Assembly (NCBI GenBank): GCA_944364615.1
Contig: CALVWF010000001.1
Coordinates: forward strand, 65,840-129,839
Length of the DNA stretch: 64,000 nucleotides
Origin: an uncultured Clostridia bacterium
Lineage (GTDB): Bacteria > Bacillota > Clostridia > Christensenellales > CAG-314
Reading direction: 5' to 3'
Both the position numbers and the translations under genes were made by a program. Every line of letters starts with the position of its first letter. Positions within the stretch are counted from its first letter, which is position 1. Shown piece after piece: positions 6,236 through 61,953 of the stretch. The notes below the pieces were generated by a model that ran no database searches, was not told the origin of the DNA, and was given only the letters and a program-made list of their open reading frames with translations.

Positions 6236-6256
6236 ATGTCATTACCCCCTAAAACA

Positions 6257-6864
6257 TCAGGCTGTCTTTTGCAAAAACGCACGCAACTTGTCACTCTTCG
6301 GATTGAGCAACACCTCCGACGCACGTCCGTATTCCTCGGCAACCCCCTCCGAGAGAAACAAGACGTTGTCTGCGACATTCAATGCAAACTGCATTTCGTG
6401 CGTTACTATAATCATTGTTCGATCCGAACTCTTCAACGATCTGATGACTTTCAGCACTTCCCCGTCAATTCGGGATCCAATGCGCTTGTAGGTTCGTCGA
6501 AACACAGTACGGAAGGTTGAAGTATCAATGCACGCGCGATGGCAACACGCTGTTGCTGTCCGCCCGACAGTTGGTAAGGGTAGCAGTCTTTTTTGTCAGA
6601 CATTCCCACACGGACAAGCCACTGTTCGGCACTGACTGTCCATTCGCGCTGCAAGTCGTCACGCAACTGTCTGTACTGTTCGCTGAAAGTTTGTTTTAAT
6701 TGCCTTTTCTTTAAGCCCGACTCTTTTTTCAATTGTACCGCAATTTGCTTTTTCATGTCAACAAGTTGTTGCCTGCACAGCAATTTTTTTGCCAACGCCA
6801 CATTTTCCAGAGCGGTATATTGAGGAAACAGATTGAAGTGCTGAAAAACCATTCCGAACTGCAA
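6257..6864 (-). pseudogene. Remnant of an amino-acid-type ABC transporter ATP-binding protein (5'-truncated and frameshifted)
   Basis: Two overlapping ORFs in different frames. 6451-6864 has Q-loop [27 protein letters not shown] and Walker [15 protein letters not shown]. 6257-6505 has [10 protein letters not shown]...MIIVTHEMQFA. The Walker A region (about 75 aa) is missing, and a TAA lies just upstream in frame. No permease or binding-protein gene nearby. Confidence 0.8.
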
Positions 6865-8530: not shown

Positions 8531-8562
8531 ACTTTTCCTCCGTAAAATTAACCTCTGATTAT

Positions 8563-9222: not shown

Positions 9223-9265
9223 CCTTTCTCCGACATTGCAATTATATCACAGACTTTAAATATTT

Positions 9266-9649
9266 TCAACCGTGTAACTGTCTGTATTTTTCCACCGCTT
9301 CCTGATATTTGGCGGAAAGTTTCATCAGGTAGGTCTGACGCTGATAGGCGTTGAGCGTACTCATATACTGTTTGTCGGCAAGCAGACTTATAGGATTTGC
9401 CACCGTCTGTTTGCTTGTAAGTATTTCCTCTACCTTACGCTGAAACTGTTGCTCTCTGTTGTACCCCTCGCTGTCGTATATCAGACGTTCCAACTGTCTG
9501 TGCTGTTGCTGACGTACGGCATTGCAGTCCAGTCCTTTGGTGACCGCGACCTGCTTTTCCGTTTCCAGACGCAGACGTGTCTGCTCCCAGAAACCGCTTT
9601 TCATTCTCTCCTTGGCTTGACGTGCGAACTTCTTAAAGGTATCTTTCAC
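9266..9649 (-). CDS. Hypothetical protein (127 aa)
   Basis: C-terminal part of track ORF 9266-9952. GTG 9649-9647 preceded by AGGAGGGAG. The N-terminal 100 codons of the track ORF overlap rpsU in another frame and are discarded. No family recognised. Confidence 0.5.
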   Translation of the reverse strand: MKDTFKKFARQAKERMKSGFWEQTRLRLETEKQVAVTKGLDCNAVRQQQHRQLERLIYDSEGYNREQQFQRKVEEILTSKQTVANPISLLADKQYMSTLNAYQRQTYLMKLSAKYQEAVEKYRQLHG

Positions 9650-9675
9650 TGTTGCTCCCTCCTGTGTCTTTGCAT

Positions 9676-9711
9676 AAAAAATAAACTGCCTGTTCAGCAG
9701 AACAAGCAGTT
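9676..9711 (-). terminator. Rho-independent terminator after rpsU
   Basis: Minus strand AACTGCTTG-N10-CAGGCAGTT (one G-U pair) followed by TATTTTTT. Confidence 0.65.
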
Positions 9712-9734
9712 TTATCTTTAGTGAAAATACTTTA

Positions 9735-9914
9735 TCAGTTCTTAGAATTACGTTTTCTTGCCGCTTCGGCCTTCTTCTTACGACGAACGCTGGGCTTTTC
9801 GTAATGTTCCTTCTTGCGGAGGTCACCGATGATGCCGTCTCTGGCGCATCTTCTCTTGAATCTACGCAATGCGCTGTCCAAAGTTTCGTTTTCACCAACT
9901 CTGATTGTAGACAT
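9735..9914 (-). CDS. rpsU: 30S ribosomal protein S21
   Basis: Own translation: [59 protein letters not shown] (59 aa, below the track cutoff). GGAGG RBS at 9921-9926. TGA stop 9735-9737. Confidence 0.93.
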
Positions 9915-9979
9915 GTTCTCGCCTCCTTCCCCGCAATCGGGACAAACTGCAATTTTCCTTTCGGGAAAATCTAATGAAT

Positions 9980-10008
9980 ATTTTACTCAATGACACCCTA
10001 TTTGTCAA
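9980..10008 (-). promoter_or_regulatory. Sigma-A promoter of rpsU
   Basis: Minus strand TTGACA (10008-10003), 17-nt spacer aatagggtgtcattgag, TAAAAT (9985-9980). Confidence 0.6.
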
Positions 10009-10047
10009 CGGTTTGTAAACAAAAAAGCAAACTAAATTGCAAGGCGA

Positions 10048-10452
10048 TTATTTCATTCTCAGAGCCTCGTGTAGCGCTTTGAGGTCGACGCCCAGTTTTT
10101 CTCTTGCAGGCCACAGATCCACTCCGTCGTCGGACTTGCGGGGAAGTATGTGCACGTGGAAATGCATCACGCTTTGTCCGGAACATTCTCCGCTGTTGTT
10201 GATGACGTTGACTCCCTGAAATCCGCAGTCTTCGACATAATGACGGGAAATCTTCTGTACGGCGTGCATTACCGCGTTCAATGTCTGACTGTCGCAGTCG
10301 AGAATGTTGGTGCAATGCTGCTTGCTGACTACCAGCGTGTGACCGTAGTAGTCCTCGGCAATGTCCAGAAAAGCAAACACTTTGTCGTCTTCGTAAATTT
10401 TAAACGAGGGAATATCCCCTTTGATGATTTTGCAAAAAATACAATCTGTCAT
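10048..10452 (-). CDS. HIT family (histidine triad) protein
   Basis: 134-aa ORF. CIFCKII head and histidine triad HFHVHILPR. Confidence 0.9.
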   Translation of the reverse strand: MTDCIFCKIIKGDIPSFKIYEDDKVFAFLDIAEDYYGHTLVVSKQHCTNILDCDSQTLNAVMHAVQKISRHYVEDCGFQGVNVINNSGECSGQSVMHFHVHILPRKSDDGVDLWPAREKLGVDLKALHEALRMK

Positions 10453-11681
10453 AACAAATCTCCTTTTACACCGTCTTTATAAAGTTCCTTGGCAATCACT
10501 TTTACCGTCTGTCCTTCCGTGGCGTTTCCCTTGAAGTACACTCTTGTGTAATTGCGGGAATAGCCCTCCCACATTCCGTTTCTTGACCGTTCCGCAAGCA
10601 CTTCTTCCGTCTTGCCTATCTGCGAATTGAGAAAATCGCTTTTGAGTTTGCGCTTGATTTCGCCCAGACGCTCGGCACGCAGATGTTTGACTTCCGCAGG
10701 AGTGTCCTCCCAACGTGACGCCACAGTACCCTTGCGCGCGGAATAGGGGAAAACGTGTATATCCGCAAACCCTATCTGCTCCACAAACCTGCACGTTTGC
10801 TCGAATTCCTCTTCCGTTTCGCCGCAGAAACCGACTATAACGTCCGTTGTAAAGGCTGCGTCGGGAAAATAACCTCGTATCAGTCTGACGCCGTCGGCAA
10901 ACTGTTGCGCGGTATAATGTCTGTTCATTCGCTTTAAAACGCTGTCGCTTCCGCTTTGCAACGACAGGTGAAAATGAGCACAGAAGTTCTTCCTTTTAAG
11001 ACTTTCCAACACGTCTTCCGTCAGTGCGCTTTCTTCCAGACTGCCCAGACGGTAACGCTTGTCGTCAGGCAATGCGTCAAACAACTGTGCCAGAGAAGTG
11101 CCGTTGTCACGGCCGAACTGAGTGATGTCTATACCTATCAGCACCACTTCTTCGGACGTAGCCTGCCGTACTTCATTCACAATGTCCTCTATTTTACGAC
11201 TGCGACTTCTTCCTCTGAGATAGGGGACTATACAGTAACTGCAAAAGTTGTTGCATCCGTCCTGTATTTTTATAAAACTTCTTGTACGCTGTCCGTCGGC
11301 AAACAGCGTTTCGCTGTACCTGTCGGACGGCGGACAGATGCCTACGCCTGCATTTTCCAGTATATCCGCGACATCGGTCTTGCCTTCCGTACCTTTAATG
11401 AAGGTGACGTTGTCCAGATTTTCAAACTGCGTTGCGTTGTTCTGCGAAGCACAGCCCATCACCACGATTCTGCAATCGGGATTGAGTTTCCTCGCCCTTG
11501 CCACCGCCTGACGAGATTTTCTTTCCGCTTCTGCCGTGATGGCGCAGGTATTCAACACGAATATGTCCGCCTTTTCAAGCCCTTCCGACGCGTCGTGTCC
11601 CAGTTGTTTCAATGCCGCGACTATCTGCTGACTTTCGTAAAAATTGGTCTTGCAACCCAATGTAAATACACTGATTTTCAT
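10449..11681 (-). CDS. mtaB: tRNA t6A37 methylthiotransferase MtaB (radical SAM)
   Basis: 410-aa ORF. UPF0004 N-domain, radical SAM CNNFCSYC, C-terminal TRAM-like region. Follows rsmE as in the Bacillus dnaK operon. Confidence 0.85.
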   Translation of the reverse strand: MKISVFTLGCKTNFYESQQIVAALKQLGHDASEGLEKADIFVLNTCAITAEAERKSRQAVARARKLNPDCRIVVMGCASQNNATQFENLDNVTFIKGTEGKTDVADILENAGVGICPPSDRYSETLFADGQRTRSFIKIQDGCNNFCSYCIVPYLRGRSRSRKIEDIVNEVRQATSEEVVLIGIDITQFGRDNGTSLAQLFDALPDDKRYRLGSLEESALTEDVLESLKRKNFCAHFHLSLQSGSDSVLKRMNRHYTAQQFADGVRLIRGYFPDAAFTTDVIVGFCGETEEEFEQTCRFVEQIGFADIHVFPYSARKGTVASRWEDTPAEVKHLRAERLGEIKRKLKSDFLNSQIGKTEEVLAERSRNGMWEGYSRNYTRVYFKGNATEGQTVKVIAKELYKDGVKGDLL

Positions 11682-12409
11682 TATTTTGTCCTGCCGAGTA
11701 TTCCGTCCGTCAAAGACAGTACGTAAAGCGGAGCGGTCTCCGCACGCAAAATGCGTTTGCCCAGAGTAACGGCCGTAGCGCCCGCATCAACTGCCGCCTG
11801 CGCCTCCTCGGGAGAAAATCCTCCTTCGCTTCCTACAATTATTGCGATGTTTTTTACCGGTTTCGAATCCAGCACGTCAAACACAGTACCTTCACGCTGA
11901 TTTTCGTAGCAAAACAACGCAATGTCGTAATTTTTCAATTCTTCCGTCAATCGGGCAAAGTTACAACGGCTGACTTGTACCGCAATCGCTCTTCCGCACT
12001 GTTTGGAGGCTTCCAGCGCAATACGGTTAAGCCTTTCCAGTTTTTTGTCATCACACTCTCCTACGGTATAACGGCTGTCAAACAGCACTACGCGGTTTAC
12101 TCCCAGTTCCACCGCTTTCTGTACTACAAAGTCGTTTTTGTCCCCTTTGCAAACGCCGAAATAAAGCGTGGTCAAGTACCCGTTTTCCGCGGAGGAAACT
12201 CGGCTTTCTTCTATACGCAAGACCACACTTTTGCCGTCGATGTTTTCCACTACCGACAAATGTTCCCATCCGTCGTTGAAACAAATCACCGCTTTGTCAC
12301 CCGCTTTCATTCGCAAGACTCTTGCCATATGGTGATATTCGCTTGTGACGTTGACTATGTCGCCCTGCCGTTCTTCGGGCAGCGCAAAAAATCTTCGTAT
12401 CTGACTCAT
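11681..12409 (-). CDS. rsmE: 16S rRNA (uracil1498-N3)-methyltransferase RsmE
   Basis: 242-aa ORF. HHMARVLRMKAGD head, IIVGSEGGFSPEE and LGKRILRAETA C-terminal motifs. Confidence 0.88.
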   Translation of the reverse strand: MSQIRRFFALPEERQGDIVNVTSEYHHMARVLRMKAGDKAVICFNDGWEHLSVVENIDGKSVVLRIEESRVSSAENGYLTTLYFGVCKGDKNDFVVQKAVELGVNRVVLFDSRYTVGECDDKKLERLNRIALEASKQCGRAIAVQVSRCNFARLTEELKNYDIALFCYENQREGTVFDVLDSKPVKNIAIIVGSEGGFSPEEAQAAVDAGATAVTLGKRILRAETAPLYVLSLTDGILGRTK

Positions 12410-13314
12410 AAACGTTTAAGCAGAAGGGCTGTCCATTCGCCCTCCGTAGTACTTTTGATCCCGGTAAATCCCTGACGGGCGAAAGCCTGTTCCACCTTGT
12501 CCGCTCTGTCGTTGAGAATACCGGACAATACAAGTCTGCCACCGGGAAGAGTCACGCTGCCTATTCCCTCCGCCAACAAATACAAGATGTCCGCCGTGAG
12601 ATTGGCGAAAACTACGGGAAACCGTCCCTTGACGTCTTTGGCAAGATCGCCGCAGATAATCTCGCATCTGTCTTCCAGTCCGTTGAGACGTGCATTTTCC
12701 AGCGTCGCTTCCGTAGCCTGTGAGTCTATGTCGGTAAACACCGCACGACTTGCGCCTTTGAGCAGTGCCGACAGTCCGAGTATACCGCTGCCGCACCCCA
12801 CGTCCAGCACTTCCTGTCCGCAGACATCCGCTTCGTCGATTAGTTTAATGCACATAGAAGTAGTTTCGTGCTGACCTGTTCCGAATGCCGTACCGCTGTC
12901 CAGATACAATACCGGCAATCCTTTCTGACTGTCATCGGGTGTAAGCCATCGGGGACACACGACGATGCCTCCTATCGTCATCGGGCGGAAGGTCTTCTTC
13001 CAGTTGTTTAACCACATCTCCCCGTCCACTTCTTCCACGGAAATTTCAAGACTTCCGGCGTCGGTAAGCGAACAAAGCGCACCTTTAAGATAGTCGAGCG
13101 CCGATTGCACGTCTTCGTTGTTGCAATATCCCTTGACCAAAACTTCGTCGCCGTAAACGTCCGTTGCGCTTTCGTCGGCGTAATCCCACGACGCGTTGTC
13201 GAAATCCTTGCGATCGTAGATGCTTACTCCGTCCATACAACATTCCTGCAAAAAATACGCCACAAGTTCGCTTGTGGCTGTGTTTGTACTAATTGTAATC
13301 TGTGAATATTTCAT
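12406..13314 (-). CDS. prmA: Ribosomal protein L11 methyltransferase PrmA
   Basis: 302-aa ORF. SAM motif VLDVGCGSGILG, FGTGQHETT. Confidence 0.9.
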   Translation of the reverse strand: MKYSQITISTNTATSELVAYFLQECCMDGVSIYDRKDFDNASWDYADESATDVYGDEVLVKGYCNNEDVQSALDYLKGALCSLTDAGSLEISVEEVDGEMWLNNWKKTFRPMTIGGIVVCPRWLTPDDSQKGLPVLYLDSGTAFGTGQHETTSMCIKLIDEADVCGQEVLDVGCGSGILGLSALLKGASRAVFTDIDSQATEATLENARLNGLEDRCEIICGDLAKDVKGRFPVVFANLTADILYLLAEGIGSVTLPGGRLVLSGILNDRADKVEQAFARQGFTGIKSTTEGEWTALLLKRL

Positions 13315-13322
13315 ATGTAAGC

Positions 13323-13646
13323 TCAGTTAATCAGTATGTCAATAAGTTTTTTGGCGTTTTCCCATTCACGCTTGTTTACCAGATACAACGCCCTGCCACG
13401 TTCGGTGATAGTATAGTATTTGCGTGTAGCACCGACGTTTTCCCCCCACGAACCTTTGATACATTCCATATCTTCCAGACGGTGATAAGCCGAATACAGA
13501 CTCTGTTCGTTGGGAACATACAGATTGTCTGTTTTTTTGGCAATGAACTTGCGTATCTCGTTGCCGTATTTAGTTCCGTCCATCAACGCCGACAACACGA
13601 AAGTGTCGATGTGCCCGCGAAGCAGATCGCTTGAAATTACCTTCAT
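13323..13646 (-). CDS. PadR family transcriptional regulator
   Basis: 107-aa ORF. LLRGHIDTFVLSALMDGTKYGNEIRKFI...YSAYHRLEDMECI...RKYYTITERGR. Confidence 0.85.
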   Translation of the reverse strand: MKVISSDLLRGHIDTFVLSALMDGTKYGNEIRKFIAKKTDNLYVPNEQSLYSAYHRLEDMECIKGSWGENVGATRKYYTITERGRALYLVNKREWENAKKLIDILIN

Positions 13647-13669
13647 AAATTTTCTCCTATGTCTAACAT

Positions 13670-13711
13670 AAAAAGAATACCACTTTACAAAGTTTTTGTA
13701 AAGTGGTATTC
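13670..13711 (-). terminator. Strong hairpin (terminator or attenuator) between dnaJ and padR
   Basis: Perfect 15-bp stem GAATACCACTTTACA / TGTAAAGTGGTATTC (13675-13711), 7-nt loop, followed on the minus strand by TTTTTA. Only about 25 nt before the padR ATG. Confidence 0.65.
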
Positions 13712-13773
13712 GGTAACAATAAAATAATTGTCTTTTTGTTTTTTTTTAGCGTGAAAAGACCGTCAGCCCGTAA

Positions 13774-14907
13774 TTACTTCTGCTGATACATTCTGGCAAG
13801 TTCATCGAGATACTCCTTGCGTTTGGGGTAACTGCTTATGGTGGAGTCACGCTCGAAATCTTCAAGGCTCTTGCGTTGAGCACGAGTGATGCTTCTCGGC
13901 ACTTCCACCTTGAAAGTAACGTAAAGGTCTCCTGACTGACCGCGTCCGGACTGTATGCCCTTACCGCGGAAACGCAACGTTTCGCCGTTGCCCGAACCGC
14001 TTGCAAGTTTGTGTACAAACATTCCCTGCAATGAAGGTATTTCCACTTCGCCGCCCATTACCGCGGTGGAAAATGTCACCGGCACTTCGGTGTATATGTC
14101 CAGATTGCGACGGCTGAAAACCTTGCTGGGTTTTATGCTGAGCACCAACAGAAGATTGCCGTTTCTGCCTGCGCCTCTGGGGCTGTTGCCTTCACCCGCG
14201 ATTTGCAGTACCGAACCGTTTTCCACTCCTGCGGGAATGGTAACGTTCATGACCTTGTTTTTTCTGACAACGCCGTTGCCGTTACAATCCGGGCATTTGT
14301 CTGTTACGATTTTACCGGTACCGTTACAGTTTGTACAGGTTCCGATGCTTATCTGCTGTCCGAACAATGTATTTTGCGTATAACGAACCTGACCGGTACC
14401 GTTACACTTGGGACAGGTCTTCAACGAATCGGAGTTCTTCGCACCCGTACCGTTACAGGTTTTGCAACGTTCCAGACGTGTAAAACTAATGGACTTTTTA
14501 CAGCCGAGAGCCGCCTCCATAAACGTCAGTTCTATTGTCTGGGTGATGTCGTCTCCCACGGCCTGCCGTGTGCTGCGTCGCGCAGATCTCGCGCCACCTC
14601 CCATAAAACCGCTGAAAATATCGAAAATGTCGTCAAATCCGCTGGCGGTAAAACCTCCGCCGTTGCCAAAGGGATTGAAGCCCTGACTTTCGTCCATTTC
14701 TCCGCGATCGTATTTCTGACGCTTGTCGGGATCGCCCAGCACGGAATACGCTTCGTTACATTCCTTGAACTTTTCCGCACATTCCTTGTCATCCGGATGC
14801 AGGTCGGGGTGATATTTTTTGGCAAGTTTACGGTAGGCCGACTTGATCTCATCCTGCGACGCCGTCTTTTCTACGCCCAGAATCTTGTAGTAGTCTTTCA
14901 TTGCCAT
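13774..14907 (-). CDS. dnaJ: Molecular chaperone DnaJ
   Basis: 377-aa ORF. J domain with [11 protein letters not shown]. Four Zn repeats [32 protein letters not shown]. Confidence 0.97.
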
Positions 14908-14928
14908 AATTTTTTCCTTTAATCATTA

Positions 14929-14963
14929 TGCATTGCACGCAACGGATTGTTGCGTGCAATGCA
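14929..14963 (-). other. Intercistronic 15-bp hairpin between dnaK and dnaJ
   Basis: TGCATTGCACGCAAC-ggatt-GTTGCGTGCAATGCA. No T-run follows on the minus strand, so more likely an mRNA processing or stability element than a full terminator. Confidence 0.5.
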
Positions 14964-14979
14964 GTAAAACTTCATTAAA

Positions 14980-16797
14980 TTATTTGTTGTCGTCGCTCAC
15001 GTCGTACTTGACTTCTTCGCCCGACTGAGGATCCGTTGTGCTACCCTGCTGATGTTGAGCCGCAGCCTGATAGAATTTCTGGAAGATAGACGCGCTTGCC
15101 TGAGCAATACGATCCGTTTCCGCCTTCATTTCGTCGGAAGTACCCTTTTCCAGAACTTCCTTGCCCTTCTTGATTTCTTCTTCGAGTTTTTCCTTGTCGG
15201 CGGCTTCGAGTTTGTCACCGCTTTCACGCAGGAACTGTTCCAAAGACAAAATCATCTGGTCAAGTCCGTTACGGTTTTCCACTTCCTGTTTACGTTTCTT
15301 GTCTTCTTCGGCATACTTTTCGGCGTCTTTGATAGCCTTGTCGATGTCCGCTTCGGACAGGTTAGAGGAAGATGTAATTGTTACGGACTGTTCCTTCTGA
15401 GTACCGAGGTCTTTTGCGGTTACGTGTACGATACCGTTTGCGTCGATATCGAATTTTACTTCGATCTGAGGAACTCCTCTGGGAGCGGGAGCAATACCCG
15501 TCAGAGAGAAACGTCCCAACGTCTTGTTGTCGGCAGCCATTTCACGTTCGCCCTGCAACACGTGAATGTCGACGCTTGTCTGATTGTCTGCCGCAGTACT
15601 GAATATCTGCGATTTGCTGGTGGGGATGGTCGTGTTACGCTCGATGAGTTTTGCAGTTACACCGCCCAGCACTTCGATACCCAATGACAACGGAGTTACA
15701 TCCAGCAACAGCACGTCCTTGACTTCGCCGCCAAGCACACCGCCCTGAATTGCAGCGCCGATAGCGACGCATTCGTCGGGGTTGATGCCCTTGTAAGGTT
15801 CCTTACCGCTGAACTTCTTGACTGCTTCGACCACTGCGGGGATACGTGTGGAACCACCCACCAGAATTACACGGTTGATGTCGTTGGTGGTAAGTCCGGC
15901 GTCCGCCAAAGCCTGCTTCATAGGATCGATGGTCTTCTTAATGATACCTTCGATGAGCGATTCGAACTTAGCACGGGTAATTTCTATTTCAAGGTGTTTA
16001 GGACCTGTTGCGTCTGCCGTGATGAAGGGCAACGACACTGTTGTCTTAAGAGTAGAACTCAGTTCGATCTTAGCCTTTTCGGCTGCTTCCTTCAATCTCT
16101 GCATTGCCTGCTTGTCTTGCGACAGGTCAATACCGTTGGACTTCTTGAATTCGTCGATGAGGTACTGCATTACGATGTTGTCGATGTCGTCGCCGCCCAG
16201 ACGGTTGTTACCGTTGGTGGCAAGAACTTCGAATACGCCGTCACCGATTTCCAGTATAGACACATCGAACGTACCGCCGCCCAGGTCGTAAATAAGTATC
16301 TTCTGATTCTTGTTTTCGCCCTTATCAAGACCGTAAGCAAGTGCAGCCGCTGTAGGTTCGTTGATGATACGCAACACGTCAAGACCGGCTATCTTACCTG
16401 CGTCCTTAGTTGCCTGTCTCTGTGCGTCAGAGAAATACGCAGGCACCGTGATGACGGCCTGAGTTACTTTTTCACCGAGATAACTTTCGGCGTCGCTCTT
16501 CAATTTGGAAAGAATGATACCGCTTATTTCCTGCGGAGAATACTTCTTTCCGTCTATATCCACTGTATAATTTGTTCCCATTTCACGCTTGATGGACAAC
16601 ACAGTACGATCGGCGTTTACCACCGCCTGTCTTTTAGCAACCTGACCTACCAGTCTTTCGCCGTCTTTAGTAAAACCTACGATGGACGGAGTTGTACGGT
16701 TACCTTCCGCATTGGTTATAACAACGGGTTCACCGCCTTCCAATACTGCAACACAACTGTTAGTTGTTCCCAAGTCAATACCAATAATCTTTCCCAT
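14980..16797 (-). CDS. dnaK: Molecular chaperone DnaK (Hsp70)
   Basis: 605-aa [38 protein letters not shown]. Confidence 0.98.
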
Positions 16798-16862
16798 AAT
16801 CTATATCTCCTTTAATGTAAATGTTCTTTATATTACAGGGAAGTCACATCCGTTTCTTCCCG

Positions 16863-17468
16863 TTATTGTCCAACGACTACTTCTGCGTAACGCAACACCT
16901 TGTCGTTGAAGGTGTAGCCGTCTTTATAAACTTCCACGACCAAATCCGTCTTGCCTTCTTCGGCAGGAACTTTTGCAAGTGCGTTCATTGTCGTTGCGTC
17001 AAACGGTTTGCCCAAGACATCCATTTTTACAACGCCCAGTTCGTCAAGCACGTGCCTGAACTGTTCTTCCACCATTTCGAACGCTTTCAGGTTTTCGTCG
17101 TTGAGATGCTTTCTTGCAATGGCGAAAGTGTCCAGAATAGGAAATATCTTTTCCACCACGCCTGCTATACCTTGCGCCTTGCTGTTTTCTTCATTGAAAC
17201 GCATGCGCTTTTTATAACTGTCGAAATCGTTTTTCAAAGCGACCAGTTGAGTCAGGTAACTGTCGCTCTTGTCCGCCGACGACTGTAATCTGTTTACCGT
17301 GGCGGTAAGTTTGTCGCTTTCCTGTATCAGCCGTTCGTTTTCTTCCGTAAGCAACTTGTAGTTTTCTTCCAGTTTTTCCAATTTCTGTTCCGCTGTAAGT
17401 TCTTCCTGTTGCGCAGGGATTTCCGATTGCTGACAGACTTCTTCCGTCTGTTGTTTCTTTTCTTTCAT
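16863..17468 (-). CDS. grpE: Nucleotide exchange factor GrpE
   Basis: 201-aa ORF. Coiled-coil N-terminal half and GrpE C-terminal beta domain (GKPFDATTMNALAKVP...VVEVYKDGY). Lies between hrcA and dnaK. Confidence 0.9.
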   Translation of the reverse strand: MKEKKQQTEEVCQQSEIPAQQEELTAEQKLEKLEENYKLLTEENERLIQESDKLTATVNRLQSSADKSDSYLTQLVALKNDFDSYKKRMRFNEENSKAQGIAGVVEKIFPILDTFAIARKHLNDENLKAFEMVEEQFRHVLDELGVVKMDVLGKPFDATTMNALAKVPAEEGKTDLVVEVYKDGYTFNDKVLRYAEVVVGQ

Positions 17469-18494
17469 TTATTGCTGCTCCTTCGGGTTCAGCATGTCGG
17501 TGAGCAATTCGCTTATACGGTCCAGCACGGCAACTACCTTGCTGTAATTCATTCTTACGGGACCGATGACTCCGAAATTACCGCTGACATTTTCGCCCAA
17601 ATTGATTTTTGCCGAAACTACCGAACATCCTTCCGGCACACTGTCTTCACTGCCTATTTTGATAGCCAGATTGTCATCGTCGGTGTCGGTAAATATCCGT
17701 GCCAGTTCGTCCTTGTGCTCCAACGTGGAAAGGAAACATCTTGCATTGTTGACATCCTTGTATTCGGTGTGATTGAAGATGTTGTTACTGCCTTCCGTCA
17801 CCACATCCATACCGTTGGCAAGGGAAACTTTTTTCAATACGTCGATTATTTTTTTGAACAGTGCGTTGAACTGTTCAAACTGACTGTTGACCAACGCATA
17901 GGGATAACGGAAATTGATGAAGTCGGAAATATGTCTGCCTACAAAAATTTTGTTGAGCCAGTTTTCCGCCTGCACGAGCATTTCCGAAGTAAAGTTTTGC
18001 GGAAGGTCAATGACCGCGTCTTTGAGCAGACGCGAATCGGTGACTATTACCACAAGCATCTGACCGTTGGACAAATCCAGCAGTTTTATCACCTTGATAC
18101 AGTCGGACAGGTCTTCCTTTACCACTACCGATGTGTAGTGCGTCACTTCGGAAATTACCTTCGCAACTGCGGAAATGACATCTTCCACGTCCGACCACTT
18201 CTGAGCGAAATACCTGTCGATCATGTCCACTTCGGCAACGGTCAGCGGTTCACGGTGCATGAGTTCGTCCACATAAATGCGAAACGCTTTCTGCGACGGC
18301 ACTCTGCCCGCGCTGACGTGAGGCTGTACGAGATAACCCATACTTTCCAAAGCGGACAACTCGTTGCGGATTGTAGCCGACGAGCAGTCACGCAGATGGT
18401 TTTCCTGAATATCCTTACTGCTTATCGGACTTGCCGTTTCAATATAACTGTCTACTACCGCACACAGTATTTTTTTCTTACGTTCCGATAACAT
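17469..18494 (-). CDS. hrcA: Heat-inducible transcription repressor HrcA
   Basis: 341-aa ORF. N-terminal winged helix LSERKKKILCAVVDSYIETASPISSKDI. First gene of the dnaK operon, with CIRCE upstream. Confidence 0.93.
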   Translation of the reverse strand: MLSERKKKILCAVVDSYIETASPISSKDIQENHLRDCSSATIRNELSALESMGYLVQPHVSAGRVPSQKAFRIYVDELMHREPLTVAEVDMIDRYFAQKWSDVEDVISAVAKVISEVTHYTSVVVKEDLSDCIKVIKLLDLSNGQMLVVIVTDSRLLKDAVIDLPQNFTSEMLVQAENWLNKIFVGRHISDFINFRYPYALVNSQFEQFNALFKKIIDVLKKVSLANGMDVVTEGSNNIFNHTEYKDVNNARCFLSTLEHKDELARIFTDTDDDNLAIKIGSEDSVPEGCSVVSAKINLGENVSGNFGVIGPVRMNYSKVVAVLDRISELLTDMLNPKEQQ

Positions 18495-18527
18495 ATCAGG
18501 TCACCTGTCACGAATATTTTAAGAGTG

Positions 18528-18554
18528 TTAGCACTCTCGACGTAAGACTGCTAA
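18528..18554. promoter_or_regulatory. CIRCE operator (HrcA binding site)
   Basis: TTAGCACTC-tcgacgtaa-GACTGCTAA versus consensus TTAGCACTC-N9-GAGTGCTAA (1 mismatch). 33 nt upstream of the hrcA ATG and just downstream of the promoter. Confidence 0.88.
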
Positions 18555-18565
18555 TTCTTGATTAA

Positions 18566-18594
18566 AATATATCACCGCTCGTCACGTTTGTCAA
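18566..18594 (-). promoter_or_regulatory. Sigma-A promoter of the hrcA-grpE-dnaK-dnaJ operon
   Basis: Minus strand TTGACA (18594-18589), 17-nt spacer, TATATT (18571-18566), immediately upstream of CIRCE. Confidence 0.7.
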
Positions 18595-19132
18595 TGATTT
18601 TTGCTAAAATTTAAAAATTTTCTTTAAAAAAATCATTGTACGAGGACTTACGGCGAAATTTTTTAATTTCTTTTCAATTACAGTATACCTCAGACAGCAT
18701 TGCAATATACCGTCATACATTAATATTATACACCGCAACGCTTTAACAGACAACAAAGTGCGACGGTTTATTTTGTGTAGGCGTGATGCGCGGTAAATTT
18801 TGATTGCGGACAGACAAACCGGGCAACCGTCCGCTTGTTGCTTTTCGGGCAAACATTTTCTCGTTGAGGGTTACGCACGCAATTTGATACATACCACATT
18901 ACATTACGCAAAGAGACAGAGATGTGTTACGGTATCGGAACGCAAAGGAAATTTACCGCAAATTTTCTACCGAAACACTTTTCCACGCAAAATGGAAATA
19001 AACTTTTACTTCACATACGGAAGTTTAAGCCTTGTTGCGTACGCCCGCAGCAACATCTCTGTTATTACTTTTAATTCCTATTATAAATAATATATCCTTA
19101 TTAATTGACGCAACCGCAGTTGAATGTGTACG

Positions 19133-57342: not shown

Positions 57343-58296
57343 CTATTCGACGGTAATATAGCGACCTCTTCCCTTGATTTTGTCTGCCGAGTACTTGCAA
57401 CCGCATTTGTCTCCGAAGTAAAGCAACTTTAACGAGTCCGCAAAAGGCTTTCTGAACACCACTGCATTGCCTTTTTTACCCAGTTCCAGAAGCAGAGTGA
57501 ATATTTCGGAGTCAGCAGGATGCCAGTGCGTGGAGTAACTTTTGCCGCCTATACATGCGAAGAATTCAAGAACACATTCCGAATCGACATATACGTATAA
57601 TGTAAAACCGTCAAAATTCCAGACAAGCGTGTCGCCGTCGACGCTGTACTTTCCACCGAGGTCGGGAACGCTTTCCAACATTTCGTACAACTGCCGTGCG
57701 TTACGTGGTACAAAAGGCTCAACGCATTGGTAACGTGGATCGAATGCATGCAGGTAACCTGCCGTAAGTACTATCGATTCGGGCAAAACCCGCCCGACGG
57801 TAAACGTTTCGTCAAACAACGAGCAATCGAGCAGAACCTTGACGGTAAAATCAGCCGTCAGACCGCCGTCGAGTAAAGCGATTCTGAACTGTAACCATTG
57901 ATCGAACTCCATAGATGAATCCTTTTCGTCGTATTTTCCCCGCCTTACAATCATGCACTTACCATTTTCGCCAAAGGACAAAAAGTCAAAATCGGGAAAA
58001 ATGTATAAATCGCCTCCGTACAAAAAATAACTGCGACTTGTATTCCTGTGAAAAACGCATTGTACGGAAAGATCGCGCTGTCTGACGCCTTTATAAAACA
58101 TGTATTGCGGCGAATAAGTTACGTTACTTTTATACGGTATGTGAAATTGTTTGTAATAATCGCTTCTCCTATATTGTACCGCCTCGGCAAGGGACGCAAA
58201 AGGGAAAATAAACGCAATGAAAACAAATGCAACAACTATTATCGGAAAACACACAATAAACATCAACACATACAGTAAGACTTTATACCATTTCAT
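57343..58296 (-). CDS. Hypothetical membrane-anchored protein
   Basis: ORF 57343-58350 trimmed to MKWYKVLLYVLMFIVCFPIIVVAFVFIAFIF (ATG 58296 behind AAAGGAAG). One N-terminal TM region then about 270 aa with no motif I recognise. Confidence 0.55.
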   Translation of the reverse strand: MKWYKVLLYVLMFIVCFPIIVVAFVFIAFIFPFASLAEAVQYRRSDYYKQFHIPYKSNVTYSPQYMFYKGVRQRDLSVQCVFHRNTSRSYFLYGGDLYIFPDFDFLSFGENGKCMIVRRGKYDEKDSSMEFDQWLQFRIALLDGGLTADFTVKVLLDCSLFDETFTVGRVLPESIVLTAGYLHAFDPRYQCVEPFVPRNARQLYEMLESVPDLGGKYSVDGDTLVWNFDGFTLYVYVDSECVLEFFACIGGKSYSTHWHPADSEIFTLLLELGKKGNAVVFRKPFADSLKLLYFGDKCGCKYSADKIKGRGRYITVE

Positions 58297-58944
58297 ATTC
58301 TCGCACTTCCTTTCATTAATTAAAACACAAAAAAAATTATTTTGCAACATTATGTCAATGAGATGTTGCTTTGCCCCTTTCAGCGTTTGAAAAAGCGTGA
58401 CGGTATCGACAGATTGTAATGAAAAAGCGACAATGCTTCAAGCGTCAGAAGTGTACGGAAACAGTCTGTTGCAGGTTTTAAGTCGACGATAAATCTTCTT
58501 CCTATTACTGCGGTAACGCACGACTTTTTTTAAAACGTTTTCCGGCACATTGGTGCACGACGACACTTCAAACGTTACGCAACCGACAACACACAACCCC
58601 GAAACAAAAACGGAAAGCCAAAAGATTTAAAACCGACAAACCGTATTTTAATTCAAAAAATACGTTGAAACGTATGGTAAAAGCATACGACAGTAAACGG
58701 GCTCGGTAAGGTCAGATTCTTTCGGTAAATAATTATTGTGCAAATGAAATACGAAAAACATTCAAACGCAAAAACCGCAAAAGTGTGCCTCGACTGACCG
58801 CCTGTGCACTGCATAAACACACCAATACCTGACTTACAACCGATGTGCAGGATACAGCAATACCGCTCTCAGTAAGAGCGGTACGCATTGAATACCGTTA
58901 AATGCAGAACAAAGGCTGTTTGCAACCACAAAACGATTCAATAG

Positions 58945-58973
58945 AAAAAGGGCGCATTGTGTGCGCCCTTTTT
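58945..58973. terminator. Bidirectional terminator at the left edge of the AT-rich island
   Basis: aaaaaGGGCGCA-ttgtg-TGCGCCCttttt. About 90 nt downstream of the NTase-like gene on the minus strand. Confidence 0.85.
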
Positions 58974-59006
58974 AATCGATTTGTTTTTGTGCTATCGCTT
59001 TAATAC

Positions 59007-59066
59007 AAAATGACACCCCTACTTGCAAAACGACACCCTTACTAGATAAACGAAACCCCTAAATTA
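59007..59066. repeat. Left-end array: three tandem 20-bp repeats
   Basis: aaaatgacacccctacttgc / aaaacgacacccttactaga / taaacgaaacccctaaatta (16/20 and 13/20 identities between neighbours). The last unit overlaps the stop codon of the NTase-like gene. Confidence 0.8.
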
Positions 59067-59726
59067 AGACTTTTTTCTATGATTGTATCGATCATAAACT
59101 TCGTTAACTGCTTCGATATAACAAATAAACGATGGATGATTATAATCATTTCTTGTTAAATACATATTTTTCTTATTTAAGTACCCTTCTCTTACTTCAT
59201 TCCAATAGTTATGGTTTTTAAGCCAATCAACTTTTTTATTTAAATTATATGAATTACGTCCTTCATTCCAAATCCAGACATCATTGCGTGTATTACCAGT
59301 TTTCTGATGAATTAGTCTCCACCATGAGCCATTTGAATCTTCAACAACGATTCCTAAGTCAATGCTAAATCTTGTCTTATTTCCACTTGTAAAATTTCGA
59401 TTTTCAGTAGTTAAAGCAGACGTAGAATCTTGGCAATCACCCCATCCATTTCTGTTTAAGATTACATTAAACTTTTTCCTTATATATTCTTTGATTCCTT
59501 GACAATCATTAATATTCCAAGAACGAATAATAGAAATATTGTAATCTAAATCAACTGGTTCAAATTCGTTTTGAGTTTCTAAATTTCTAGAACCACTGCC
59601 AACACTATGTGCCACAACTATCATCTTGCCTTCGTTATTAATTTCTTGAACCAACTGATTAACTAAATTAGAGCAAACTGATCTTAACTTCTTTAGAAAT
59701 TCTTTATCTTCTATATAATGATACAT
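59064..59726 (-). CDS. Pol-beta-superfamily nucleotidyltransferase-like protein (220 aa)
   Basis: GGAGG RBS. hGS at G43-S44 (HSVGSGSR), DxD at D59/D61 (PVDLDYNI) and a third acidic strand FSIDLGIVVED (D123), in the spacing of minimal NTase folds. W/N/Y-rich helical C-terminal half. Family not identified. Confidence 0.55.
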   Translation of the reverse strand: MYHYIEDKEFLKKLRSVCSNLVNQLVQEINNEGKMIVVAHSVGSGSRNLETQNEFEPVDLDYNISIIRSWNINDCQGIKEYIRKKFNVILNRNGWGDCQDSTSALTTENRNFTSGNKTRFSIDLGIVVEDSNGSWWRLIHQKTGNTRNDVWIWNEGRNSYNLNKKVDWLKNHNYWNEVREGYLNKKNMYLTRNDYNHPSFICYIEAVNEVYDRYNHRKKS

Positions 59727-59801
59727 ACTTAAAAACCTCCTAAATAAATATTATCCCCATGCCTACCATTTGAAGTATGTATCTTTTCTTCAAATCCTAT
59801 T

Positions 59802-59830
59802 ATTATACATTTCAATTACCAATTTGTCGA
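59802..59830 (-). promoter_or_regulatory. Sigma-A promoter of the NTase-like gene
   Basis: Minus strand TCGACA (59830-59825), 17-nt spacer, TATAAT (59807-59802). Confidence 0.6.
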
Positions 59831-59884
59831 TGGTTATCGTTCATTTTCATTATTTCAATGATTTCACATTAAAACTTGAAATGC

Positions 59885-59925
59885 AAAAAAACGCACGAAA
59901 TGACACTAAATCACTTCAATGCGTT
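59885..59925 (-). terminator. Rho-independent terminator after the 2-TM gene
   Basis: Minus strand AACGCA-tt-GAAgTGA-loop-TCAtTTC-g-TGCGTT followed by TTTTT. Separates the NTase-like gene from the upstream pair. Confidence 0.65.
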
Positions 59926-60029
59926 TATATTTGTTATCAATGTAATTATTTAAACCGAAATCACTATTATTATTTCTTATTGGAAGTATACTAAATTTTA
60001 ATTTAAGAAAGATAACTATAATTTCAATT

Positions 60030-60500
60030 CTATCTATAAAGTACAACAATTTTAGGATCTGACAAATCTTGTTCTCTAACAAAGCATTCTGCGTAATCTC
60101 CAACTTGATATGAAGTAAAATATTTTGAGAATATTCTATATACAAATCTAATTCTAACTTTTTTATTTAAATTATCTGTTTCGATTTTTCCATACATTAC
60201 ACTACCTATGGATCTTTCTAGGATTTTAACATGAATCAATTTTCCTTTTGAATTAATAAATGGCAAAAATCTATATAGATATATAATCAAAGAAGCAATA
60301 AAACAAATAGCAAACAATACATCTATCAATATTAGAACACTAAATATTTCATTAACTGCTTCTTGATTAGCATTTGTGGAATCAAAAGACTTTAAATAAA
60401 ATATCAAGCATAAAAAGCAAATAAATGTTATTAGTTGAATTGCTAAGGAAATAATCATCCAATAAAAACCGTACATTCTTTTAATATTGAATTTTTCCAT
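60030..60500 (-). CDS. Two-TM protein with small beta-rich C-terminal domain
   Basis: 156-aa ORF. TM1 about residues 10-36 and TM2 about 52-79, then about 75 aa of alternating beta-like sequence ending YQVGDYAECFVREQDLSDPKIVVLY. GGAG RBS inside the upstream gene's end. Confidence 0.6.
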   Translation of the reverse strand: MEKFNIKRMYGFYWMIISLAIQLITFICFLCLIFYLKSFDSTNANQEAVNEIFSVLILIDVLFAICFIASLIIYLYRFLPFINSKGKLIHVKILERSIGSVMYGKIETDNLNKKVRIRFVYRIFSKYFTSYQVGDYAECFVREQDLSDPKIVVLYR

Positions 60501-60502
60501 AT

Positions 60503-61039
60503 TTAAACTCCATATTTATAATTTATGTTTCCAACAACCATACTACCACGGTTATTCGTGTTGTTAACATAGTTTGTTCTTATAATGAATCTTATCTTTG
60601 TAGCGCCAGATTCGAATACATCTACATAATTTGTTAGGTTATCTTTATTAGTTGACATCTCTTTTGGATTAAAAATTCTTTTGGTTTTCCAACCATTATT
60701 ATAATATTCTAAAGTAATTGAACTTTTTTTAATAAGTGATTCATCATCACTCCAAAGGGCAATATTGTAATTGAATTCAAAAATACTAACATTTTCATCA
60801 ATCAAGTTTTCTTCTTCAATTTCAACTTCTTCTTTTTCCTGTGGAATATAATTATCAATATAAGACATACTTGATAAATTTTCCACATCATTACCTTTTG
60901 TAAGTTTTAATAGCTTTTTATCAACAACAACTTCCTGGGAATTATAAAACCCCTTATTAAAAGTCGATAATGTGCTAGAGGATACAATTCCCATTCCTAA
61001 AATCATTAAAAGAACCAATTTTTTTAAATGTTTTTTCAT
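60503..61039 (-). CDS. Secreted or membrane-anchored protein with acidic linker and beta-rich C-terminal domain
   Basis: 178-aa ORF. Signal/anchor MKKHLKKLVLLMILGMGIVSSS, acidic stretch QEKEEVEIEEENLIDEN, then Asn/Tyr-rich domain. Stop lies 2 nt before the next start. Confidence 0.55.
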   Translation of the reverse strand: MKKHLKKLVLLMILGMGIVSSSTLSTFNKGFYNSQEVVVDKKLLKLTKGNDVENLSSMSYIDNYIPQEKEEVEIEEENLIDENVSIFEFNYNIALWSDDESLIKKSSITLEYYNNGWKTKRIFNPKEMSTNKDNLTNYVDVFESGATKIRFIIRTNYVNNTNNRGSMVVGNINYKYGV

Positions 61040-61080
61040 TAATAAAACCTACTATGTCTTGGTTAGTCGGACCTAACTAA

Positions 61081-61108
61081 AGTATACTACTTCCTTTTTA
61101 TATGTCAA
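61081..61108 (-). promoter_or_regulatory. Sigma-A promoter of the secreted-protein/2-TM pair
   Basis: Minus strand TTGACA (61108-61103), 16-nt spacer, TATACT (61086-61081). Confidence 0.55.
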
Positions 61109-61159
61109 TAATTCTAATAGTGATTTCACATTGGAATATAAAAAACAAATTCATTTAAC

Positions 61160-61339
61160 TCACAAAAAATTAGAAATTATAAGCATTGGATACTCTTGCT
61201 CCAATAATGACTTAACACCGTACTGATTGTCAGAAACTTCCTTATCGTGAATTTGTGCCTCCTCCCCGAAAATGCCAATTACTCCGTGGGAATGTTTATG
61301 CTGTTCAGTTAATCTCTTCGATTGATTCTTTTTTGCCAT
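61160..61339 (-). CDS. Small hypothetical protein (59 aa)
   Basis: Track ORF 61160-61357 trimmed to MAKKNQSKRL (ATG 61339, GAGGTG 6 nt upstream). The longer form starts at an ATG overlapping the HTH stop by 1 nt. No family recognised. Confidence 0.4.
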   Translation of the reverse strand: MAKKNQSKRLTEQHKHSHGVIGIFGEEAQIHDKEVSDNQYGVKSLLEQEYPMLIISNFL

Positions 61340-61356
61340 TCTCTTCACCTCATTCA

Positions 61357-61551
61357 TTAATTATCTAGTTTCATGCCAATCTCGTTAAAGAGAACGACAA
61401 ATTTCTTCTTGGTATCCATAGTTGGTTCAAATCTACCTGTTTCCCATCTACAAACGGAAACATAACTAACATTTAATATTTTAGCTAGTTCTTCCTGTGT
61501 TAAGCATTTTCTTTCACGGTATTCTTTTATTTTCTTTGCATAATCAAACAT
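61357..61551 (-). CDS. XRE family HTH protein (Cro/CI-like, 64 aa)
   Basis: LTQEELAKILNVSYVSVCRWETGRFEP HTH_3 pattern. GAGGTG RBS. Confidence 0.8.
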   Translation of the reverse strand: MFDYAKKIKEYRERKCLTQEELAKILNVSYVSVCRWETGRFEPTMDTKKKFVVLFNEIGMKLDN

Positions 61552-61650
61552 ATGGTCACCTCAAATGGTTATCATTATTTTAACACAAACAAGTTTAAGT
61601 TTCGATATTTTCATGCAGCTTTGATGAGATTTTTTCTCAAAAAGAGTGAG

Positions 61651-61749
61651 TTGAAAATGGGGTGTCATTTATATAGTAGGGTATCGTTTATCTAGTAGAC
61701 TAACGTTTCTCTAGTAAGGGTATCGTTTATCTAGTAGGACTAAAATCTT
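61651..61749. repeat. Right-end array: five tandem 19-21-bp repeats, inverted relative to the left array
   Basis: ttgaaaatggggtgtcattta / tatagtagggtatcgttta / tctagtagactaacgtttc / tctagtaagggtatcgttta / tctagtaggactaaaatctt. Unit 4 (61710-61729) matches the reverse complement of left unit 2 at 18/20. Confidence 0.8.
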
Positions 61750-61835
61750 AAATTCCGTAGGTTCGAACCAATTCATATCTACTAGCAAAACGCAATTTAT
61801 AAAAAAATGCCCGATTTCTCGGACAAATATCGTTA

Positions 61836-61855
61836 ATTTTGACACCCTTACTTTG
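61836..61855. repeat. Solitary repeat copy in left-array orientation, 23 nt from the tRNA 3' end
   Basis: attttGACACCCTTACTttg. The 12-mer GACACCCTTACT (61841-61852) is identical and co-oriented with 59032-59043. Confidence 0.75.
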
Positions 61856-61877
61856 TATCAAAATGTTAGTTATAAGA

Positions 61878-61953
61878 TGGTGCTGGCGAGAGGATTCGAA
61901 CCTCCGGCCTATTGATTACGAATCAATTGCTCTACCGACTGAGCCACGCCAGC
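61878..61953 (-). tRNA. tRNA-Thr (anticodon CGU), CCA encoded
   Basis: Manual fold of GCTGGCGTGGCTCAGTCGGTAGAGCAATTGATTCGTAATCAATAGGCCGGAGGTTCGAATCCTCTCGCCAGCACCA. 7-bp acceptor, U8, D arm GCTC/GAGC, anticodon stem ATTGA/TCAAT with loop TTCGTAA, T arm GGAGG-TTCGAAT-CCTCT (one G-U), discriminator A. Confidence 0.9.

Follow-up and report, generated by a model that had tools for sequence, protein, structure and literature searches.

In the 64-kb stretch of DNA from an uncultured Clostridia bacterium analyzed here (the window, to which coordinates refer unless a homologous locus is named), the locus under study occupies positions 60030-61039 of the minus strand and comprises two open reading frames (ORFs), gene 1 and, downstream of it, gene 2. 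The locus is a decayed mobile-element cassette, and its surviving gene 2 is a member of an undescribed small family of membrane proteins with two transmembrane (TM) helices and a cytoplasmic OB-fold (oligonucleotide/oligosaccharide-binding fold). Gene 1 encodes what is left of a secreted protein of about 720 amino acids (aa). As for the function, we tentatively prefer, with rather less than even confidence, the reading in which the ~720-aa protein would be a secreted membrane-active factor and the 2-TM protein its neutralizing, immunity-like partner, the window copy being an orphan. The 2-TM protein is very probably not a cyclic-nucleotide-gated effector of the Cap15 type, and a false lead is thereby removed, that of an effector locus of the CBASS (cyclic oligonucleotide-based antiphage signaling system) or Panoptes type.

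The product of gene 1 starts with MKKHLKK followed by a hydrophobic stretch (residues 8-26, Kyte-Doolittle (KD) hydropathy 1.83), continues with an acidic QEKEEVEIEEENLIDEN stretch and ends in a beta-rich C-terminus. Its homologues are few and of very unequal lengths. In a BLASTP comparison with the 718-aa protein of the homologous locus L024, residues 1-67 are aligned to residues 1-67 with 79% identity, and residues 87-178 to residues 627-718, with more than 95% identity over these last 92 residues. Judged by this alignment, gene 1 is made of residues 1-86 and 627-718 of the ~720-aa secreted protein, residues 87-626 having been lost in frame. The common 142-aa form of gene 1 consists of residues 1-111 and 684-718 joined at a short GAT(K/I) repeat, and both in-frame deletion forms (178 aa and 142 aa) remove precisely the variable center of the protein.

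Altogether six different deletion junctions (in the window, L006, L019, L020, L023 and L003/L004) take out a part or all of gene 1 and leave gene 2 intact. In L019 gene 1 is deleted completely, the junction lying between ATGAA and TATGG; in L023 and L020 the stumps of gene 1 are frameshifted; and in L003/L004 a repeat array (described below) is joined 26 nt upstream of gene 2. The possibility that L003 and L004 are assembly chimeras was rejected, as the junction is common to two independent assemblies and other loci have other junctions. In the window the Shine-Dalgarno sequence of gene 1 is weakened (GTAGG vs GGAGG at all other loci), and Ser166 is found in place of a nearly invariant arginine.

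An AlphaFold2 (AF2) model of gene 1 contains a beta-sandwich at residues 72-177 (predicted local distance difference test, pLDDT, 70-86), whose Foldseek matches are CBM32, CBM4, MAM and enterotoxin C-terminal domains (E~1e-3). This C-terminal domain is the best-conserved part of the ~720-aa protein, with the ratio of nonsynonymous to synonymous substitution rates (dN/dS) about 0.1. Scans with Pfam, PADLOC, NCBIfam and PHROGs yielded no family match for gene 1. One candidate, a "pre-toxin TG" domain in the ~720-aa protein, was rejected, having no match in Pfam.

In the product of gene 2, two hydrophobic segments (KD 2.76 and 3.05) are followed by a beta domain of ~72 aa, which has a net charge of +6 and ends with ...YQVGDYAECFVREQDLSDPKIVVLYR. 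In the AF2 model (pLDDT 77), helices at residues 11-37 and 45-76 precede a beta1-beta2-beta3-alpha-beta4-beta5 arrangement. Basic residues are located before the first TM helix and after the second one, and the 13-residue loop between the helices is acidic or neutral; the predicted topology is therefore N-in/C-in. Foldseek comparison with PDB returned OB-folds only (IF1, the anticodon-binding domain of LysRS, YloQ, the TRAM domain of RimO, and Teb1; E 4e-3 to 3e-2, TM-score normalized by the target 0.63-0.76), and BFVD yielded weak OB matches, among them a full-length one to a viral "NfeD-like C-terminal domain-containing protein" (E = 0.014). No family match for gene 2 was observed in Pfam (E<=1), PADLOC (E<=1), NCBIfam or PHROGs, and the profile search of PDB sequences with the 2-TM family found nothing. 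The family comprises 27 clusters among 5.8 billion proteins, and a full HMMER scan of 1.84 billion proteins detected 15 representatives; its hosts are low-GC metagenome-assembled genomes (MAGs) labeled "uncultured Bacilli/Mollicutes" and Clostridium sp. CAG:288.

The pairwise dN/dS of gene 2 is 0.13-0.42, solo copies included, consistent with purifying selection. Because both ORFs have homologues and gene 2 is under purifying selection, they are real genes and not chance reading frames. The segment 60030-60503 of the window is 98.9% identical at the nucleotide level to positions 5995-6557 of L019, an "uncultured Bacilli" MAG with GC content 29%, where gene 2 is flanked by groES/groEL. Such identity between genomes with GC contents 46% and 29% indicates a recent transfer of gene 2 between distant gut lineages. 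Gene 2 occurs solo at at least five loci: after a SLFN_AlbA_2/HATPase_c_4 gene (L012-17), after a PTS-EIIC/EAL gene (L018), between mgtE and a phosphotransacetylase-like (PTAC) gene (L051-53), and after the deleted partner (L019, L023, L003). For the distant members P0186 and P0188, the contigs are too short for the gene context to be read.

Several peculiarities of individual copies of gene 2 were seen. Codon 121 (60138-60140) encodes Tyr in the window and in other contigs of the same species (L001-L005), as opposed to Ser in every other close relative (RFVSRIF). Frameshifts were found in the 2-TM copies adjoining full-length partners in L024 (2565-3512) and L036 (~6165-6640); L024 is a contig with 2.4x coverage, and its frameshift may be a sequencing error.

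The TAA stop codon of gene 1 (60505-60503) is separated from the ATG of gene 2 by 2 nt, and the Shine-Dalgarno sequence of gene 2 lies inside the end of gene 1 (Table 1). The TTGACAT of the promoter is invariant across seven homologous loci, the phage context included. The palindrome TTAGTTAG-N5/6-CTAAC, directly following the promoter, has an invariant stem and a variable loop in seven loci (window, L019, L023, L024, L006, L035, L037). A simple terminator scan missed the hairpin at 59926-59889, which was revealed by comparing the folding energy with that of shuffled sequences: with its U-run, it has -20.4 kcal/mol (z = -4.5), and 0 of 200 shuffles were as good. The similarity to other loci stops at 59857-59882, beyond the terminator of the pair. 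The 2-nt junction, the promoter and the terminator are kept wherever a full-length pair exists, supporting the view that the two genes form one functional unit. In these respects the description given in an earlier note on this DNA held: a protein with a signal or anchor peptide, an acidic linker and a beta-rich domain, followed two nucleotides later by a protein with two TM helices and a beta domain, the two forming one unit with its own promoter and terminator. Two further suggestions of the same note were not supported: gene 1 was proposed to be a surface sensor and turned out to be a stump of the ~720-aa protein; and for the DUF3592-type ending attributed to gene 2 we found no Pfam match at E<=1, while the profile search of 1.84e9 proteins yielded nothing but the 15 members of the gene 2 family.

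Wherever the ~720-aa gene is full-length (L024, L035, L036, L037-40, L057/58), it is located 2 nt upstream of the 2-TM gene. In L037-40 the pair is preceded by genes for an 832-aa protein with Ig/PKD repeats, the phrog_9428 membrane protein and the holin phrog_297, and is followed by genes for an HNH endonuclease and, further on, a terminase-like helix-turn-helix (HTH) protein. The holin gene ends in a terminator, after which come the TTGACAT promoter, the palindrome and GGAGG. With its own promoter and terminator between phage genes, the pair thus has the layout of a phage moron.

A second context of the full-length pair is an element of ~11.7 kb (L057/58, 7100-19100), which is located beside a tRNA gene after yqeY and carries the unit at its left end. 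In addition to the pair, it comprises an HTH_3 gene, a split HNH gene, a gene for a 220-aa protein resembling nucleotidyltransferases (NTases), genes for the phrog_2308 HTH protein and a SHOCT protein, small ORFs, an HNH_2 gene, and two or three large ORFs of serine recombinases (integrase phrog_95 at 2e-127). L055/56 is the same element minus 8.1 kb internally, plus the 719-to-142 deletion in gene 1. The pair of the window is situated in a strain-variable low-GC islet which is likewise a stripped-down derivative of a ~12-kb serine-recombinase integrative element, comparable to L055/56.

The full-length pairs differ from each other in a patterned way. The comparison covers three variant types and one extra consistent case. 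L035 and L037 form a mosaic: the nucleotide identity is 99% in the first 400 nt of gene 1, 56-60% at nt 874-1174, 86-96% in the last ~900 nt of gene 1, 50-68% in most of gene 2, and 92% in its last 80 nt. At the protein level, the identity is 39% for the center of gene 1 (residues 300-415), 97% for the flanking C-terminal domain, and 47% for the TM hairpin of gene 2. Matched divergent tracts in the center of gene 1 and in gene 2 lie on either side of a conserved spacer. L035 and L036 have identical big proteins and the same type of the TM hairpin, with different OB domains. Outside the signal peptide, hydrophobic windows of the ~720-aa protein occur solely in the variable center (KD 1.3-1.74), which also contains a conserved glycine-zipper motif, QIGxxxGxxx[G/S]xxx[G/A].

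In colicin-type immunity, the gene for a large exported protein is directly followed by, and expressed together with, that for a small integral membrane protein. In toxin-immunity loci the variable region of the toxin diverges together with the immunity gene, and an orphan immunity gene outlasts the decay of the toxin. In the pairs studied here the small gene is immediately downstream, with its Shine-Dalgarno sequence inside gene 1, in all full-length cases. We read gene 2 as a putative immunity gene because of the matched divergence, the tight coupling, the persistence of gene 2 after the decay of gene 1, and the removal of the center of gene 1 by deletions. Gene 2 is carried by a strain-variable islet and is 99% identical in nucleotides to copies from Bacilli MAGs with GC content 29%, as expected of a horizontally spread protective gene. 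In the proposed mechanism, the ~720-aa protein would be a bacteriocin- or toxin-like, Sec-secreted and membrane-active factor, whose C-terminal beta-sandwich, resembling carbohydrate-binding modules (CBM), would target a cell surface, and whose hydrophobic glycine-zipper center would insert into membranes. The 2-TM protein might meet this center within the membrane via its own TM hairpin and neutralize it, the cytoplasmic OB domain serving, e.g., in oligomerization or plugging. In the window the presumed active center is lost, and gene 2 would persist as orphan protection against neighbors making the full protein. A broader formulation, which we consider possible and no more than that, is that uncultured low-GC gut Bacilli harbor, on their phages and serine-recombinase elements, an undescribed two-gene "killer" cassette. 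Its first gene would code for the Sec-secreted ~720-aa protein with a hypervariable, membrane-inserting core and a CBM-like targeting domain, and its second for the cognate 2-TM/OB-fold immunity protein, orphan immunity genes being spread between bacterial classes on integrase-less tRNA-targeting islets like that of the window.

Several observations weigh against the immunity reading. The most distant member of the 2-TM family, P0193 (25% identity), is a solo copy between mgtE and the phosphotransacetylase-like gene; as it has no partner, the family is not obligately paired. Within gene 2, conservation is highest in the cytoplasmic OB-fold, a feature for which the immunity model gives no explanation. 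In the ~720-aa protein, searches of Pfam, PHROGs and PDB sequence profiles recognized no domain that would serve in toxicity, pore formation or trafficking, and we infer its membrane activity from hydropathy and a short motif. The ~720-aa protein also occupies the post-holin slot expected for an endolysin, and the 10 kb read contained no further endolysin. Finally, the co-variation is based on the three variant types plus the one consistent case.

Other explanations have to be considered in view of the same data. Retention of gene 2 alone under purifying selection at at least five unrelated loci, its position as cargo of a strain-variable mobile islet beside a remnant of a restriction-modification (R-M) system, the copy in L012 adjoining the SLFN_AlbA_2/HATPase_c_4 gene, and the IF1/S1-like OB-fold with net charge +6 would all suit a stand-alone phage-exclusion or abortive-infection protein, where the OB-fold would sense nucleic acid or protein of an incoming phage and the membrane would then be depolarized or blocked by the 2-TM hairpin, the secreted protein being unrelated or accessory. 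PdpSau and the lactococcal AbiP are described as acting in this way, and the likeness to Cap15 would be one of architecture only. A parallel is provided by PdpSau from a Staphylococcus aureus prophage, a membrane-anchored accessory protein with a positively charged cytoplasmic OB-like region, whose gene is associated with those for holin and amidase and which brings about abortive infection accompanied by depolarization of the membrane (PMC10127798). However, this explanation leaves unexplained both the invariant 2-nt coupling to the big gene and the divergence of gene 2 together with the center of gene 1 across a 97%-identical spacer. Moreover, no defense family from PADLOC or PHROGs matched, and no copy was found by tblastn of the ~720-aa and 2-TM proteins against INPHARED phages and PLSDB plasmids or in IMG/VR scans with both families. 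We consider it rather unlikely, though it is the main rival of the immunity reading. A phage lysis module, with the ~720-aa protein as an endolysin-like enzyme that is exported by Sec and binds the wall through its C-terminal beta-sandwich, the 2-TM protein as an antiholin-like membrane regulator and the window copy as inert debris, is suggested by the position of the pair directly after the holin phrog_297 and the phrog_9428 membrane protein, by L037/L038 having no other endolysin candidate between the tail-fibre-like and terminase-like genes, and by the CBM-like C-terminal domain being the best conserved one (dN/dS about 0.1). It is improbable, as the pair is set apart from the holin by a terminator and has a sigma-70 promoter of its own, a peptidoglycan-hydrolase domain was not detected in the ~720-aa protein with Pfam and PHROGs, and, unlike an inert remnant, the 2-TM gene is intact and constrained in many genomes that have no holin, lysin or phage.

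The remaining two alternatives concern the 2-TM protein itself. The earlier note had suggested that it could be a membrane effector with the architecture of the Cap15 type, and had considered a link to the adjacent gene for a 220-aa NTase-like protein to be weakened by a terminator between the genes. The latter was borne out, as the strong terminator and a second promoter-like site (59830-59802) are both found there. G43-S44-G45, D59-L-D61 and D123 of the 220-aa protein are invariant in 21 homologues, and this GSG...DLD...D signature fits that of pol-beta-type nucleotidyltransferases and is typical of minimal ones. Searches of Pfam, PADLOC (SMODS and CD-NTase models included) and PDB sequences gave no match to the 220-aa protein; its family is unannotated and exceeds 1,000 members (identity about 60%), those examined being mostly solo among housekeeping genes. 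The NTase-like gene adjoins the 2-TM gene in the window, L021 and L023; in L057/58 the two genes are separated only by a decayed HNH gene, and the protein identity to the window copies is 57% for the 2-TM gene and 48% for the NTase-like gene. Hence the NTase-like gene accompanies the pair in two lineages of one mobile element that have diverged from each other, and it is missing from the phage context and from at least six other 2-TM contexts. A 339-aa gene of phage L037 was tried as a relative of the NTase-like gene and rejected (hhalign probability 0.6%). We consider the NTase-like gene to be co-travelling cargo, and its signaling link with the 2-TM gene to be unlikely.

These data bear on the Cap15/OptE-like explanation, where the barrel would bind a nucleotide signal made by the 220-aa protein in the CBASS/Panoptes logic. 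In its favor are the two TM helices with a cytoplasmic beta-barrel, the invariant GSG...DxD...D signature and the neighborhood of the genes in the window and its relatives. Of the S-2TMbeta/Cap15 assignment, the architecture is retained (a predicted N-in/C-in hairpin and a cytoplasmic barrel), while the family membership is not supported: no S-2TMbeta, Cap15 or SMODS model matches either protein, and the barrel returned OB-folds, with the Cap15 structures outside the top 50 PDB matches. The separation by the terminator and the second promoter, the constraint on the 2-TM gene where the NTase-like gene is missing, and the solo life of the NTase-like family all argue against a signaling pair. The occurrence of the 2-TM gene apart from any NTase-like gene, which the earlier note itself had named as evidence against its model, is thus largely borne out. 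The Panoptes effector is toxic by itself (PMC12657230), a property that agrees poorly with the existence of stable solo 2-TM genes. Such a nucleotide-gated effector is thus very improbable. Improbable to an even higher degree is an NfeD-like membrane protein that would bind a scaffold of the SPFH/flotillin type and have a housekeeping role in membrane organization. Here the same order of domains, the weak full-length BFVD match to the viral NfeD-like protein, and the location of distant members among housekeeping genes have to be set against the lack of a Pfam NfeD match at E<=1, the absence of an adjacent SPFH/Band-7 gene from all loci read, and a family that is tiny, patchy and travelling on mobile elements.

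Table 1. Features of the locus and the surrounding islet (window coordinates).
Feature	Position	Strand	Basis or remark
Gene 1, 178 aa, in-frame internal-deletion remnant	60503..61039	-	BLASTP vs L024 718-aa protein
Gene 2, 156 aa, two TM helices and basic cytoplasmic OB-fold, intact	60030..60500	-	AF2, Foldseek, hydropathy
Shine-Dalgarno sequence of gene 2, GGAG	60510..60513	-	7 nt before gene 2 ATG, inside gene 1 end
Sigma-70-type promoter, TTGACA-16-TATACT	61081..61108	-	Best consensus match of the region, 11/12
Palindrome TTAGTTAG-N6-CTAAC, operator or hairpin of the 5' untranslated region	61061..61080	-	Adjoins the -10 box on its downstream side
Intrinsic terminator of the pair	59885..59926	-	Hairpin and U-run
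NTase-like gene, 220 aa, separate islet cargo	59064..59726	-	Own promoter-like site 59830-59802
Strain-variable low-GC islet	58984..61877	.	Filled vs empty sites in same-species contigs; GC profile
tRNA-Thr(CGT), integration target	61878..61953	-	ARAGORN; Rfam tRNA, 76 bits
HTH_3 (Cro/C1-type) regulator, 64 aa, resembles R-M controller protein	61357..61551	-	Pfam HTH_3 1.4e-8
EcoRI-like type II restriction endonuclease, N-terminal remnant, 65 aa	61160..61357	-	Pfam EcoRI 1.1e-6; PADLOC REase_II 1.4e-13
Left-end array, four tandem 19-20-nt units GGGTATCGTTTATCTAGTA	61660..61737	+	Absent from the rest of the 64-kb window bar the other islet end
Right-end array, 2-3 copies of the GGGTATCGTTTATCTAGTA unit, inverted orientation	59000..59058	-	Same unit as in the left-end array

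The islet (2,894 bp) was defined by aligning islet-bearing and islet-free contigs of one species, with L042 and L045 compared to L043, L044 and L046-L049. Contigs of this species, which have identical SmpB, exist in two forms, with or without five genes at the islet site: among the 22 long contigs grouped, 13 carry the islet and 9 do not. The empty site is exact at the 3' end of tRNA-Thr, the first base of the islet immediately following it, and the far junction is marked by a short imperfect repeat AGCAC(C)A. The GC content of 58900-61850 is 24-31%, compared to 46% for the window and the genome. The islet contains no recombinase gene, and in an Rfam scan of the islet the tRNA was the only hit above the threshold. 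Along the minus strand, the order is tandem units, HTH_3, the EcoRI-like stump, the pair, the NTase-like gene, and inverted units.

The GGGTATCGTTTATCTAGTA arrays also occur in L003, L020, L021, L023 and L041, with analogous units in L006, L026, L055 and L057; the 11.7-kb relative L057 has arrays with a different unit sequence at both its ends. That the arrays are arm-type sites of a tyrosine integrase was not confirmed, as the recombinases of the full element are of the serine type. The arrays might serve in recombination directionality, in the binding of a regulator or in replication.

The EcoRI-like remnant covers positions 1-38 of 257 of the Pfam EcoRI profile and 6-59 of 283 of PADLOC REase_II. 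A controller-like HTH gene followed by just the first 25-65 codons of an EcoRI-like endonuclease was observed in the window (61160-61551), L006 (5316-5444) and L057 (7585-7713). In L006 and L057 the endonuclease stump is joined at GIFGE to the last ~17 codons of the phage holin (GLADVANAGE.DKNKTE), and L006 contains a second, 105-nt copy of the holin tail downstream of the pair. The endonuclease-holin fusion together with the second holin tail suggests that the cassette was captured by microhomology recombination. In L003 (8700-9950) the 2-TM gene comes after another small cassette, which encodes an HTH_24 protein and a kinase-like protein of 176 aa and is flanked on both sides by copies of the same ~200-bp tRNA-flank sequence, an arrangement which suggests tandem build-up of cassettes at a tRNA. 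Outside the islet, a 335-aa core-genome gene at 57343-58350 (called as 317 aa), present also in strains without the islet, encodes a protein with a hydrophobic N-terminal region and a faint PADLOC match to the CBASS "2TM effector" model PDLC00686 (E = 0.017).

The analysis defines a tiny unannotated family of membrane-anchored OB-fold proteins, which moves between gut lineages (nucleotide identity 99%) and remains under selection even after the partner gene decays. If the immunity reading is true, poorly known gut Bacilli would have, in the ~720-aa protein, a new secreted antibacterial protein carried by phages, and the locus would be an example of protective genes outliving the weapons once paired with them. 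If, vice versa, gene 2 acts in abortive infection, it would represent a minimal single-gene membrane defense with an OB-fold sensor.

Several known systems resemble the locus in part. Cap15 and OptE (S-2TMbeta; CBASS, Panoptes), like gene 2, have two N-terminal TM helices fused to a small cytoplasmic beta-barrel and reside on mobile or defense-type DNA. However, there is no sequence similarity, and Pfam and PADLOC are silent, even though PADLOC does hold 2TM effector models, e.g. PDLC00686; the barrel here is a ~72-aa five-stranded OB-fold, with 7N34 and 7N35 outside the Foldseek PDB top 50; and gene 2 has no obligate nucleotide-synthase partner, its conserved partner being the ~720-aa secreted protein encoded upstream. 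The short forms of NfeD likewise consist of one or more TM segments followed by a C-terminal OB-fold; in the case of gene 2, the Pfam NfeD model does not match and no SPFH partner gene is located nearby.

PdpSau and the lactococcal AbiP, membrane-anchored abortive-infection proteins whose cytoplasmic OB-like region binds nucleic acids, share with gene 2 the anchor at the N-terminus and the basic OB-type domain in the cytoplasm, a likeness that is architectural and drawn from the literature. The gene for PdpSau, too, is accessory, and it adjoins phage lysis genes (PMC10127798). In contrast to gene 2, PdpSau has one TM helix and 278 aa, and neither PdpSau nor AbiP is described as coupled to a large secreted protein. 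With phage morons the pair shares its own sigma-70 promoter and intrinsic terminator, the location after the holin terminator, and dispensability for the phage core; it differs in comprising two genes and in having also moved into a serine-recombinase element and reduced islets. As to colicin-type and polymorphic-toxin pairs, the big protein here has no recognizable toxin or colicin domain, its toxicity being presumed, the variable region is central rather than C-terminal, and the highly conserved OB-fold in the cytoplasm is an addition to the small protein. At the same time, as in those pairs, gene 2 encodes a small membrane protein right downstream of, and co-expressed with, a large exported one, seems, in the three variant types and the one further case compared, to diverge together with the variable region of the latter, and survives its decay.

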